Numbered from the stretch's first letter, positions 12,609 through 17,641 are shown. The stretch is 64,000 nt of DNA from Escherichia coli (GCF_036507355.1 NZ_AP027877.1); one strand, 5' to 3'. A program made the numbers and translations. Notes: generated by a model from the letters alone, not told the origin.

Positions 12609-12817
12609 TATCACTGGAATATATGATTTCACATTATATATTCCTAATATAAATATTATAATCTCTTTCCTATTAGATTAACGACTAATTAAAAATGTGT
12701 AAAGTCACATTCTTATAATTTTAAGATTATATTTAGCACTTATGGAGTGCAGTTCCTGTGCTATCTGGAATACAATATTAGACATTATTTCAGAATTAAA
12801 TTTTCACAGAGAAAAAC
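12609..12817 (+). promoter_or_regulatory. AT-rich leader/promoter region of the islet
   Basis: About 200 bp of strongly AT-rich sequence (runs of TATA/AATA) immediately upstream of the inverse-autotransporter gene; typical of horizontally acquired, nucleoid-protein-silenced promoters. Confidence 0.4.
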
Positions 12818-14998
12818 ATGCTGCGATGGATTCGCTATATAACGCTAATCGTTATTTCTGGTGCTGCTTATGCGGCACCGGAGATAAATATTAAGCAAAG
12901 CGAATCTTCATTACCTGATCTGGCAAGCGAAACGGCTCAACAAGAGGAACAAAGTAACAAAGGCAAATCTTTCAAGGAACGTGGTGCCAATTACGTTACC
13001 GAGTCCGCCCATCAGGGCTTTGAGAACCTGACTCCAGAAGCTCTTGAATCCCAGGCGAGAAGCTATCTGCAAGGGCAAATCACATCATCTGCACAGTCTT
13101 ATATTGAAGGTGCGCTTTCTCCTTATGGTAAAGTTCGCTCTAACCTTTCCATCGGTCAGGGTGGCGATCTGGACGGCAGTTCGATCGACTATTTTGTTCC
13201 CTGGTATGACAATCAGAGCACAGTCTATTTCAGTCAGTTTTCTGCGCAACGAAAAGAAGAACGCACGATAGGTAATATAGGTTTAGGTGTAAGACATAAT
13301 TTTGATAAATGGCTTCTGGGGGGGAATATATTTTATGATTATGATTTCACCCGCGGACATCGCCGTTTAGGCTTAGGAACAGAAGCCTGGACGGATTATT
13401 TAAAATTTTCTGGTAACTATTATCATCCGCTTTCAGAGTGGAAAGATTCAAAAGATTTTGATTTCTATTTAGAACGACCCGCACGTGGCTGGGATGTCCG
13501 GGCGGAAGCCTGGCTACCTTCTTATCCTCAGCTGGGGAGCAAAATTGTTTTCGAGCAATATTATGGTGACGAAGTGGCGCTCATCGGCACCGATAATTTA
13601 GAAAAAGATCCCTATGCAGTGACGCTTGGCGTGAACTATCAACCCGTTCCGTTACTGACGGTCGGGACGGATTATAAAGCAGGTACCGGAGATAACAGTG
13701 ATCTTAGCGTTAACGCCACGATTAACTATCAGTTCGGTGTTCCGCTAAAAGATCAACTGAATAGCGATAACGTCAAAGCAGCTCACTCGCTGATGGGCAG
13801 CCGCCATGACTTTGTTGAGCGCAATAATTTTATTGTTCTGGAATATAAAGAAAAAGATCCTCTCGACGTTACGTTGTGGCTGAAGGCTGACGCCACCAAT
13901 GAACACCCGGATTGTGTCATCAAGGACACCCCCGAAGCTGCGGTAGGGCTGGAAAAATGTAAGTGGACAATCAATGCGCTAATCAACCATCACTATAAGA
14001 TTGTCGTCGCCTCGTGGCAGGCGAAAAACAACGCTGCGCGTACGCTGGTGATGCCGGTTATCAAAGAAAATACCATCACGGAAGGGTACAACAACCACTG
14101 GAATCTGGTGCTGCCAGCCTGGCAGTACAGCTCTGATCCCGCCGAACAGGAAAAACTCAATACCTGGCGCGTGCGTCTGGCGCTGGAAGATGAAAAAGGC
14201 AACCGGCAAAACTCCGGCGTGGTGGAAATCACCGTTCAGCAGGATCGCAAAATTGAACTGATCGTCAACAACATTGCGGATGTGCCGGATGAAAACAATC
14301 ACAGTCATGAAGCCAGCGCTCAGGCGGATGGCGTCGATGGCGTGGTGATGGAGCTCGATGTTACCGATAGCTTTGGTGATGACACCGACCGTAACGGTAA
14401 TGCGCTGCCAGAAAATGGCCTGAGTCCGCAGCTTTACGATGCTCAGGATAAAAAAGTCACCCTCACCAATAAAGCCTGCTCGACCGATAACCCGTGCGTC
14501 TTTATCGCGAAGCAAGATAAAGAGAAAGGAACCGTCACCCTCTCCAGTACTTTGCCCGGCACCTTCCGCTGGAAAGCAAAGGCCGCGCCGTATGACGATA
14601 GTAACTATGTCGATGTGACTTTCCTCGGGGCGGGGGGCAATGACGTTAATGCCTTTATCTACCGTGTATCTGCGACTAAACCTGTCAACCTTATTGATAA
14701 CGACAAAGAACATTTGCCGGTGGATAACGCCTACCGTTTTGTCTTATGGCGTGATGCCAACAAAGATGGCGTTTTCCAGCAGTCGGAAAAACTGACGGAA
14801 GAAGAAATGGCGCAATACGACTACCAGTGGGAATTTACCGGACACAGCGTCAATGGCTACACCGGTGCGCAATCGAATACCAGTAATGAAGATATTGTCA
14901 TCCCTGCCACTAACGAGGAAGCGGTACAGAAATTTGGTGCCCAAAAAGAGGATGGCGTGCAGGGGTATGGATTACGTGTGGTTTACAGCAAGCACTAG
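12818..14998 (+). CDS. sinH: intimin/invasin-family inverse autotransporter adhesin (SinH-like)
   Basis: 726 aa; signal peptide (cleavage near AYA/AP); segment SIGQGGDLDGSSIDYFVPWYDN...TINYQFGVP reads as the intimin/invasin beta-barrel translocator; Ig-like passenger; position between yfgJ and xseA matches the Salmonella CS54 sinH locus as I recall it. Confidence 0.65.
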   Translation: MLRWIRYITLIVISGAAYAAPEINIKQSESSLPDLASETAQQEEQSNKGKSFKERGANYVTESAHQGFENLTPEALESQARSYLQGQITSSAQSYIEGALSPYGKVRSNLSIGQGGDLDGSSIDYFVPWYDNQSTVYFSQFSAQRKEERTIGNIGLGVRHNFDKWLLGGNIFYDYDFTRGHRRLGLGTEAWTDYLKFSGNYYHPLSEWKDSKDFDFYLERPARGWDVRAEAWLPSYPQLGSKIVFEQYYGDEVALIGTDNLEKDPYAVTLGVNYQPVPLLTVGTDYKAGTGDNSDLSVNATINYQFGVPLKDQLNSDNVKAAHSLMGSRHDFVERNNFIVLEYKEKDPLDVTLWLKADATNEHPDCVIKDTPEAAVGLEKCKWTINALINHHYKIVVASWQAKNNAARTLVMPVIKENTITEGYNNHWNLVLPAWQYSSDPAEQEKLNTWRVRLALEDEKGNRQNSGVVEITVQQDRKIELIVNNIADVPDENNHSHEASAQADGVDGVVMELDVTDSFGDDTDRNGNALPENGLSPQLYDAQDKKVTLTNKACSTDNPCVFIAKQDKEKGTVTLSSTLPGTFRWKAKAAPYDDSNYVDVTFLGAGGNDVNAFIYRVSATKPVNLIDNDKEHLPVDNAYRFVLWRDANKDGVFQQSEKLTEEEMAQYDYQWEFTGHSVNGYTGAQSNTSNEDIVIPATNEEAVQKFGAQKEDGVQGYGLRVVYSKH

Positions 14999-15053
14999 AT
15001 CGGCGTAATGGCCGATCGGCCAGCCGCTGGAAATTAATCAAGGAGAGAGTTGA

Positions 15054-16175: not shown

Positions 16176-16190
16176 TGAATAACGCGCACT

Positions 16191-17573
16191 TTGTCAACAA
16201 TCTGGTCATTTCAGCAAGGGAATGGTGCTTCTCCGCACACTTTGCTTACGGCGACGCTTGCACGTGAAACAGGGGTAAAGTCAGATCTCGACCTGATGTA
16301 TACCGTAGTAACAAGCCCGGATACGCCAAAAGCCAACTTCTGGGGACATATGCCAGAAACGGTAAGCTCAGCAGACGGAACGCAGTTTGAGCGGATGAAA
16401 CTGTGGGCCGAAATGGGGGCAACCAGCGGTGGCGGTTATTCGCTCACTAAAGTGAATATAAATAATGAAAGCTGGCCTGCGCCATATATTACCCAGCGAT
16501 ATTTGCCGGAGCTTATCCCTTGTGAAAGCGCACGATATCCATCATTGGATGAGCTTCAATCTTTATACAACCGCTATCCGAATGGCTCTATCGTCAATGA
16601 GATTGGCTGGCCGGTGAAACAGAATAGCTATGTGTGGTGGACAAATGCAGATTGTCCTGCGGGCGCGAATTCTTGTGAATCATTTGACTTCAACACAGGT
16701 CAACTTGTGACTGTATCTAAAAGCCGCGCCTTCCAGGCGTGCCTGGTGCACCCTCACTCAACGGTTTCTACCGTCACCCTGACGTCAACGGCATTTGACT
16801 CCACCGCTCAGGCGGCGAAAGTGAAGAAGGGCGAGGCAATGCCAGTCACCGTGACGGTGAAAGACAGCGCCGGGAAACCTGTGCCAAATGTGGCGTTTAC
16901 TCTGCGACGTGGTGATGCCTCTCCGCGTAATAGTGGGGCGACGCTATATGGCGATGTGGCGGCTATGGATGATATTACCATCCAGCCATCATCGGGGGCG
17001 GCTACCCTATTGGCGGTTAGTGGGAACGAGATCAGTGGCGTGACGGGGGCAGACGGCACGGCAAACTTTACTGTTCGTCAGGACAATACGCCGGGTTATA
17101 AAATGCCGCTGACGGTAACGCTGGATAAATACCCAACAGTGACTGCAATGATGGACACTATTTTCACCGTATTGACCAGCCCAAATGTATCTTCTGCTCA
17201 CTTCTGGGGGCATATGGCAGACACGGCAGTGGTGAATGGAAAAACATTACATCGACCGATACTGACAACTGAATTACCGTCCGGGGCCAATCCCGTATCC
17301 TCACCGATTATTAACTACGAAAACTGGGCTTCTGCGCATATTACTGATGCCAGCAAATGGGATATCTCGAAGCAGTGTGGAAATATAGAAAATGCACCGA
17401 CATACAATGAGTTAGAGACATTGTATACTGTGTTTAATTCGCTGGGATGGCCAGCTTCGCCAAGTTTCCCTTACTTGTCCTCTCAACGGTGTGGGATGGA
17501 CGAGAGCACTGGCACAGAGGATTGTAGTATCACGTTAGCCAATAAACCTGGTCTGGTTACTTGTTTCCAGTGA
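16191..17573 (+). CDS. Ig-like plus tandem Cys-containing (lectin-like) domain protein; probable 5'-truncated remnant of a larger intimin/invasin-like (RatA-like) adhesin gene
   Basis: 460-codon frame opens right after a stop inside the BIME; only start is TTG at 16191 (first ATG about codon 36); no signal peptide; two ~145-aa repeats each with FWGHM motif and 4 Cys, separated by an Ig-like domain. Confidence 0.5.
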   Translation: MSTIWSFQQGNGASPHTLLTATLARETGVKSDLDLMYTVVTSPDTPKANFWGHMPETVSSADGTQFERMKLWAEMGATSGGGYSLTKVNINNESWPAPYITQRYLPELIPCESARYPSLDELQSLYNRYPNGSIVNEIGWPVKQNSYVWWTNADCPAGANSCESFDFNTGQLVTVSKSRAFQACLVHPHSTVSTVTLTSTAFDSTAQAAKVKKGEAMPVTVTVKDSAGKPVPNVAFTLRRGDASPRNSGATLYGDVAAMDDITIQPSSGAATLLAVSGNEISGVTGADGTANFTVRQDNTPGYKMPLTVTLDKYPTVTAMMDTIFTVLTSPNVSSAHFWGHMADTAVVNGKTLHRPILTTELPSGANPVSSPIINYENWASAHITDASKWDISKQCGNIENAPTYNELETLYTVFNSLGWPASPSFPYLSSQRCGMDESTGTEDCSITLANKPGLVTCFQ

Positions 17574-17641
17574 CGAGGGGAGCGCATTTGGCGTAGCCTG
17601 GGCGCTATTGCCTAATGCGATGCTGGCGCCTTTTTTCCGGC

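Follow-up and report, generated by a model that had tools for sequence, protein, structure and literature searches.

A sinH-sinI-ratA islet with a ratA remnant between yfgJ and xseA of Escherichia coli

The window analysed here is a stretch of 64,000 nucleotides of an Escherichia coli genome (GCF_036507355.1, NZ_AP027877.1), and the element in question occupies about 5 kb of it between the genes yfgJ and xseA. This region is very probably a partly decayed copy of the sinH-sinI-ratA islet, which is known in E. coli as the ila locus and is equivalent to the sinH-sinI-ratA part of Salmonella CS54. The literature already describes this locus, under the names ila and IatB/SinH and as genomic region xseA..yfgJ (GR17; PMC12928451), and in the closest genomes the Prokaryotic Genome Annotation Pipeline (PGAP) of NCBI names its products SinH, 'SinI family autotransporter-associated protein', and 'adhesion domain-containing protein' (2139 aa). 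The novelty implied by an earlier reading of the window, made from the DNA alone and called here the sequence-only reading, is therefore not upheld. One addition to the known locus is that ratA is, in this genome, a remnant.

Gene content of the yfgJ-xseA interval

Between the two border genes lie, all on the + strand, an AT-rich leader, an open reading frame (ORF) of 726 aa, a 55-bp spacer, an ORF of 321 aa, and an ORF of 460 codons (Table 1). ORF and GC analysis reproduced the coordinates and order of the ORFs, as well as the AT-rich leader, that the sequence-only reading had given. The GC content, lowest in the leader, is 48-53% in the islet genes and 51.9% in the whole window. For the islet it is 48.8% against 51-52% for the flanks, and the values for the genes, both overall and at third codon positions (GC3), are near those of the flanks.

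The 726-aa ORF is, judged by its sequence, SinH, an inverse autotransporter of the intimin/invasin family. It scores 1476.6 bits against the NCBIfam equivalog NF033423 (cut-off 999), with residues 1-726 aligned to profile positions 1-730, and contains the Pfam domain PF11924 (IAT_beta) at residues 65-337 (model positions 4-279 of 279, E 1.2e-104). The barrel also matches the crystal structures of invasin (4e1t, E 4e-71) and intimin (4e1s, E 4e-63), and these three lines of evidence bear out the family that had been proposed for this first gene. The topology read from the sequence is inverted, with an N-terminal signal-peptide-like segment followed by the barrel and by a C-terminal passenger. 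The signal peptides of SinH and SinI were judged by eye, with cleavage of SinH placed between MLRWIRYITLIVISGAAYA and AP. The passenger (residues 338-726, 389 aa) has no match in Pfam. Published AlphaFold modelling describes three Ig-like domains in the SinH allele of extraintestinal pathogenic E. coli (ExPEC) (PMC9937491). Our AlphaFold2 models were of low confidence for both the passenger (predicted local distance difference test, pLDDT, 48, from a 14-sequence alignment) and SinI (pLDDT 55, from 15 sequences). A Foldseek comparison of these low-confidence models with the PDB gave nothing below E 0.07, and profile searches of PDB sequences with the SinH passenger and SinI gave chance-level matches only (E about 1).

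The 321-aa ORF is assigned by its profile score to the SinI family of autotransporter-associated proteins (NCBIfam NF040711, 420.6 bits, cut-off 165); it has no Pfam match and no IAT_beta barrel. This assignment, together with a signal-peptide-like N-terminus (cleavage between ...AVPAAMA and EG), is in keeping with the earlier description of the second gene product as secreted. Residues 214-320 of SinI resemble residues 623-725 of SinH, i.e., its last passenger domain (38% identity, E 4e-16), and SinI shows a weak match to ZirU_fam (E 1.3e-5). Across 15 orthologues the core of the SinI signal peptide (residues 14-29, window 15090-15140; ALAL.LAGYC.VP...A) hardly varies, if at all, even though the two SinI classes are overall only ~44% identical; for a signal peptide this degree of conservation is unusual. 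This core is not a canonical lipobox.

The spacer between sinH and sinI contains, exactly as the sequence-only reading had stated, a hairpin without a T-run; it has a 7-bp stem (GATCGGC/GCCGATC, 14998-15017), and its stability is not exceptional when compared with shuffled sequence (z = -1.4). A strong Shine-Dalgarno sequence, AAGGAG, lies in the spacer ahead of sinI. Co-transcription of the two genes, which had been suggested for the window, finds support in a published report that sinH and sinI are co-transcribed in uropathogenic E. coli (PMC12525524).

In K-12 MG1655 the junction is empty and the convergent xseA and yfgJ overlap by 4 bp, in broad agreement with the sequence-only reading, which gave K-12 only a short spacer at this place. 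No tRNA was found in 9000-21000, no integrase, transposase, or insertion sequence (IS) ORF in 12300-17800, i.e., between yfgJ and xseA, and no direct repeats at the islet borders. The statement that integrase, IS, and tRNA are missing from the borders was thus borne out by the ORF and tRNA searches. The interior is not quite so free of mobile elements, as an element resembling a repetitive extragenic palindromic (REP) sequence or a bacterial interspersed mosaic element (BIME) follows sinI. A 20-nt direct repeat (16033-16052, 16207-16226) bounds this REP/BIME-like element, which has 41-nt imperfect inverted ends. It is inserted in the hairpin 3' of sinI, which is kept in E. whittamii and E. coli E69; the islets of these two do not have the element. 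Rfam models matched it at 16098-16140 on the - strand (ES036/CssrF, 52 bits, above the gathering score) and, weakly, as naRNA4. PADLOC models of defence systems gave 0 matches.

The IS1 nearest to the islet is 5.8 kb away, at 23.5-24.2 kb. This copy (23470-24237, with InsA at 23907-24182 and InsB at 23485-23988, both on the - strand) lies between yfgH and yfgG and is not found in strain 33F4 (L003), which is otherwise ~99% identical. L032, a public contig that shares the ratA deletion of the window, stops exactly at the start of this IS1.

Table 1. Features of the islet and its border genes; positions refer to the window unless another locus (L002, L008) is named
Feature	Position	Strand	Description
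yfgJ	12393-12608	+	zinc-ribbon protein; left border gene, stop at 12608
AT-rich leader	12609-12817	+	putative sinH promoter region; 209 bp, 24.4% GC
sinH (iatB)	12818-14998	+	726 aa; predicted inverse autotransporter (type Ve secretion)
sinH-sinI spacer	14999-15053	+	55 bp
sinI-family gene	15054-16019	+	321 aa
Stretches bearing the ~21-residue motif	15054-15220; L002 4072-4215; L008 13231-13375, 14333-14475		
Hairpin 3' of sinI	16028-16052	+	CCATTCCC-GCAA-GGGAATGG
REP/BIME-like insertion	16053-16226	.	174 bp
Third ORF (ORF3), mechanical call	16191-17573	+	460 codons, TTG start, 171 bp after sinI
Deletion junction	16246-16248	+	TTA microhomology
ratA-like 3' remnant	16246-17573	+	last 442 codons of a giant adhesin gene
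xseA	17642-19018	-	right border gene, stop at 17642, convergent with the islet genes

The third ORF and the ratA deletion

The complete genomes closest to the window, NZ_OZ282453.1 and NZ_CM147849.1, have after sinI a 6420-bp gene coding for the 2139-aa adhesion domain-containing protein, which is RatA-like and consists of alternating BIg21 and InvE_AD modules. When the window was aligned with a full-length islet (locus L002), positions 12300-16248 corresponded to 62-4010 with 99.5% identity and positions 16246-19100 to 9164-12018 with 99.3% identity; the 5156 bp in between (L002 4011-9166), present in full-length islets, are absent from the window. Base by base, the junction reads ...CACTTTGCTTA followed directly by CGGCGACG..., and the two ends share TTA alone. 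The left breakpoint is inside a palindrome with a 13-bp stem, in unique intergenic DNA ~60 bp upstream of the ATG of the intact gene, and the right one is at codon 1697 of the ratA-like gene. The deletion took away half of the upstream palindrome and, with the ribosome-binding site, start codon, and signal peptide of the ratA-like gene, ~1697 codons, which are the first four fifths of its coding sequence; in the 460-codon ORF, 18 formerly intergenic codons continue without a change of frame into the 442 codons left at the end of that gene.

The sequence-only reading had counted this ORF as the third gene of the module and had called it Ig/lectin-like, a look that is explained by its Pfam domains (InvE_AD, BIg21, and InvE_AD). 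An intact and independent gene would be in keeping with these real adhesin domains, with a frame that is open for 460 codons, and with the gene callers of public assemblies, which give a 425-aa product starting at ATG 16296 that is on record in 7 contigs. However, in every close relative ORF3 is colinear with only the end of the 2139-aa gene, its first codons were intergenic, and no Shine-Dalgarno sequence was found at its in-frame starts, either the TTG or the internal ones. Against the RatA-like profile PRK15316 it covers positions 2242-2683 of 2683 and scores 697 bits, the cut-off being 3870. The parent protein is exported, and its intact form has an N-terminal signal peptide (MDGTLKLIKAITAVFLLFLSFQVGA...), whereas the remnant has none. 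ORF3 falls outside the RatA-like family when this is defined by a length of about 1850-2700 aa, a signal peptide, tandem BIg21/InvE_AD modules, and a score above the cut-off. We consider it very unlikely that the region is a module of three intact genes. By all these comparisons ORF3 is a pseudogene fragment of the ratA-like gene and should be annotated as such, not as a gene.

The exact 45-mer spanning the junction occurs in four assemblies that are independent of one another. Over the region shared with the window, three of them show 100% identity to it, and the fourth, a metagenomic contig with the order sinH-sinI-remnant-xseA, is 99.25% identical over 5.2 kb, with 39 differences. Since four independent assemblies have the same junction, the deletion is not an assembly error. 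The RatA-like protein is made of repeated BIg21/InvE_AD modules, and an assembler could in principle have collapsed such an internally repetitive gene; yet the repeats are just 27-40% identical in protein, the left breakpoint is in unique DNA with only 3 bp in common with the right one, and the samples that share the junction were assembled separately, one of them differing from the window at the 39 positions mentioned. A truncation produced by assembly is, on this evidence, scarcely conceivable.

The allele is uncommon. A 94-nt query spanning the junction had a full match in 0 of 5426 complete E. coli genomes, and in the 48 of these genomes that carry the sinH allele of the window (at least 95% identity) the two halves of the query lie 5.1 kb apart. 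The 2139-aa gene was present in 23 of the 23 contigs read that encode an identical SinI, and the exact 460-aa product of ORF3 is on record nowhere. As judged from these sequence matches, the ratA deletion is a genuine but rare allele found in several samples. The microhomology and the hairpin suggest that it may have arisen by illegitimate recombination or replication slippage; a deletion mediated by an IS was considered and rejected, as there is no IS at the junction. In one locus with the identical junction (L031 6411-7431, SRR32181686) a phage-type integrase gene comes directly after guaA, in the place where the window has yfgI and yfgH, and the deletion allele is consequently found in at least two downstream contexts.

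Distribution and age of the islet

Using at least 80% coverage as the threshold for presence, sinH was found in 1740 of the 5426 complete genomes (32%), which together with its absence from K-12 confirms the accessory nature that had been attributed to the islet. Just 48 genomes have the allele of the window, among them O145:H28 Shiga-toxin-producing strains and livestock and environmental isolates. The other carriers, among them the ExPEC strains JJ1886 and clone D i14, have an allele class with ~78-80% DNA identity. In a comparison of proteins with JJ1886, SinH of the window is 85% identical, SinI 44%, and the C-terminal part of the RatA-like protein 56%.

In a synteny scan of species-representative genomes the order yfgJ-sinH-sinI-ratA-like-xseA was conserved in 13 loci; the scan of genome contigs for SinH used exact peptide patterns that are allele-specific, and Salmonella was not returned by it. 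The order was found in E. whittamii, whose SinH is 96% identical, in Escherichia sp. E1V33 (99%), in E. albertii, and Escherichia sp. MOD1-EC7003, as well as in three Pseudocitrobacter, two Citrobacter, one Superficieibacter, and one further Enterobacteriaceae genome. A gene order conserved across five or more genera and borders without mobility genes fit the proposal, already made in the sequence-only reading, of an old islet that has been differentially retained.

The divergence from K-12 is not confined to the islet. The YfgJ allele linked to it is 65% identical in protein to that of K-12 and 82% to that of ExPEC JJ1886; the distance to K-12 is as large as that of Citrobacter YfgJ. On the same side, the 3' end of der shows 81-94% DNA identity to K-12. 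On the other side, the last ~27 codons of xseA (17642-17723) cannot be aligned to K-12 DNA, and the next 300 bp (to ~18024) are 86% identical. From this divergence of the flanks (11814-12608 and 17642-18024) it follows that most E. coli carry one of two deeply diverged junction haplotypes. The near-normal GC and GC3, the lack of mobility genes, and a haplotype reaching into the flanks together support an old retained islet and speak against a mobile island.

The alternative of a recent horizontal acquisition, with a mobile pathogenicity island entering a K-12-like junction, would be in line with the AT-rich leader and with the term 'horizontally acquired' used for the ila locus in the review literature (PMC12525524). 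It also has on its side that the allele of the window resembles those of Escherichia sp. E1V33 (98-99% identity) and E. whittamii (96%) far more closely than the common ExPEC allele (~79%, DNA), which makes an exchange of alleles between Escherichia lineages plausible. On the other hand, a recent arrival would not be expected to leave borders devoid of integrase, IS, tRNA, and direct repeats, genes whose GC and GC3 are close to those of the flanks, or the same position and order in at least five genera with islet-bearing outgroups. In addition, the extension of the divergent haplotype into yfgJ and into the ends of der and xseA is what homologous replacement would produce, not site-specific insertion. 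Recent acquisition is, in our view, quite improbable, and the islet is ancestral in this branch of the Enterobacteriaceae; K-12-like E. coli no longer have it, having lost it, and elsewhere it is in decay. Examples of such decay are an IS1 in sinH (H78, and probably also E. coli E69, L022), an IS1 in the ratA-like gene (H38), and a ratA lacking its N-terminal part (SCPM-O-B-8794).

The islet is also a mosaic when positions 12818-16019 are compared with five other loci (L008, L011, L012, L018, and L019). Relative to the Pseudocitrobacter and ExPEC-type islets, the identity of the window is 89-95% in SinH passenger domains 1-2, 72-78% in domain 3, and 43-47% in SinI, a pattern that is reversed in Citrobacter-type islets (SinH 68-75%, SinI 67-74%). 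Such a distribution of identities speaks for recombination with breakpoints close to where sinH ends. Short SinH-encoding contigs (90-92%) were also noted in implausible taxa, namely a metagenome-assembled genome of Collinsella sp. (L014) and Rhizobium wenxiniae (L025, 426 bp), and these are most likely Escherichia contamination.

Expression, proposed function, and relation to known systems

In orthologous islets of five genera the leader keeps its low GC content (24.5-29.5%) and its length (216-237 nt), and its sequence is poorly conserved save for a TTTAG...AATA.AAT block. The iatB/sinH promoter has been reported to be silent in the laboratory and to be induced ~15-fold by LeuO, an H-NS antagonist (PMC6714894), an effect that fits an AT-rich leader whose low GC content and length are conserved across genera. 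By analogy with that system, the leader of the window is a probable target of silencing by H-NS and of activation by LeuO.

The families of SinH and SinI, the operon-like spacing of their genes, the C-terminal module that they share, and the inactivation of ratA were read from the sequence of the window, and the mechanism outlined here is taken from the type Ve secretion paradigm and from work on orthologues. Family membership and the literature on orthologues suggest that sinH and sinI would form a single transcription unit behind the AT-rich leader. SinH would be exported by Sec, its 12-stranded barrel would be inserted in the outer membrane by the β-barrel assembly machinery (BAM), and its C-terminal passenger would be threaded to the cell surface, where it would act in adhesion, invasion, and biofilm formation. 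SinI would be a Sec-exported partner carrying the last passenger domain of SinH and, as in ZirT/ZirS/ZirU, it may be a secreted or associated protein that depends on SinH. Among the orthologues, IatB, the SinH of strain SMS-3-5, is located at the surface and forms biofilm without the downstream gene (PMC6714894), sinH mutants are attenuated in mouse urinary tract infection (PMC12525524, PMC11420993, PMC12928451), and SinH domains protect mice when used as a vaccine (PMC9937491).

Several points weigh against this picture of the locus. A promoter scan of the leader gave two weak sigma-70-like matches (12628-12657 and 12704-12733), no more than expected by chance, and the combined promoter and terminator scan found no higher site count than in shuffled sequence. 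The case for H-NS binding consists of the AT-richness of the leader and the published LeuO effect. The ExPEC proteins that have been studied, of the sequence type 131 (ST131) kind, share with those of the window only the 85% (SinH) and 44% (SinI) identity given above. The ratA remnant could conceivably still be translated at a low level from its internal ATG (16296).

SinH might also be chiefly a ZirT-like translocator for SinI, and in intact islets for RatA, and not itself an adhesin. Heinz et al. (PMC4943183) proposed that SinH acts like ZirT and exports SinI and Rat-like proteins, a model that Goh et al. also discussed (PMC6714894). In its favour, SinI is barrel-less, shares the last passenger domain of SinH, and matches ZirU_fam, if weakly. 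Furthermore, a motif of ~21 residues directly after the signal peptide is common to the SinI and RatA-like proteins of the same islet in 14 of 14 islets. It has two forms, 'LK.GQWQ....T..I.GT.P' and '.(A/E)W......ST.EF.GT.P', which co-vary between the two proteins; beyond this motif no similarity between SinI and RatA-like was detected. A primary role in translocation is harder to reconcile with the observations that IatB/SinH alone is displayed on the surface and drives biofilm formation (PMC6714894), and that antibodies against SinH are protective in mice, a result implying that the protein is exposed at the surface (PMC9937491). The co-variation is open to another explanation as well, since it may reflect linkage or gene conversion of adjacent gene ends, and just 2 of the 726 columns of SinH (273 and 320) follow the motif type, too few to argue recognition. 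A translocator role by analogy with ZirT is possible, though doubtful. It is rather unlikely that the motif is a recognition signal by which both proteins are targeted to one partner, plausibly SinH, for export or assembly at the outer membrane, in a two-partner inverse-autotransporter system with a defined secretion signal. If it were, the lineage of the window would represent a natural loss of ratA in which translocator and small substrate have been retained. The reading of SinH as a surface adhesin with SinI as its exported partner is the one that we retain.

The discovery value of these results is small, as the islet, its position, its relation to CS54, the SinH family, the control by LeuO, and the value of SinH as a vaccine antigen have all been published. 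For SinH-based vaccines and typing it matters that the SinH of this lineage has only the 85% protein identity to the ST131 antigen, falling to about 75% in domain 3, and that its allele occurs in non-ExPEC backgrounds, including O145:H28 Shiga-toxin-producing strains. The natural variants that lack ratA or are disrupted by IS1 are possible material for testing the interdependence of SinH, SinI, and RatA.

The islet can be compared with four known systems. Like the Salmonella ZirT/ZirS/ZirU system, it consists of an inverse autotransporter gene followed by one or more genes for exported, passenger-like proteins without a barrel; the sequence similarity of SinI to that system is marginal, and a SinH-dependent secretion of SinI would be hypothetical. 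With intimin (Eae) and Yersinia invasin SinH shares a homologous barrel and the same topology of N-terminal barrel and C-terminal passenger. It differs from them in that it lacks LysM and a C-type-lectin tip domain, in that Pfam detects no Big_1 repeats, in the short length of its passenger, and in the presence of a paralogous partner gene, sinI, downstream. The positional equivalence to Salmonella CS54 (sinH/sinI/ratA) that the sequence-only reading had proposed is upheld by the literature, through which this comparison was made: the flanks and the sinH-sinI-ratA core are the same (PMC10048834 Table 1; PMC4943183), IatB is reported to be 74% identical to Salmonella SinH (PMC6714894), and the window differs in having neither shdA nor ratB and in its truncated ratA. 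The ila locus of CFT073, UTI89, JJ1886, and SMS-3-5 is the closest system, with the same site, gene order, orientation, and families, and with a 55-bp sinH-sinI spacer common to the window and JJ1886. The window departs from it by a sinH with ~79% DNA identity, by the REP-like element between sinI and ratA, and by the length of the ratA-like gene, whose product has 2693 aa in JJ1886 and 2139 aa in the lineage of the window, and which in the window itself is reduced to the 442-codon remnant.

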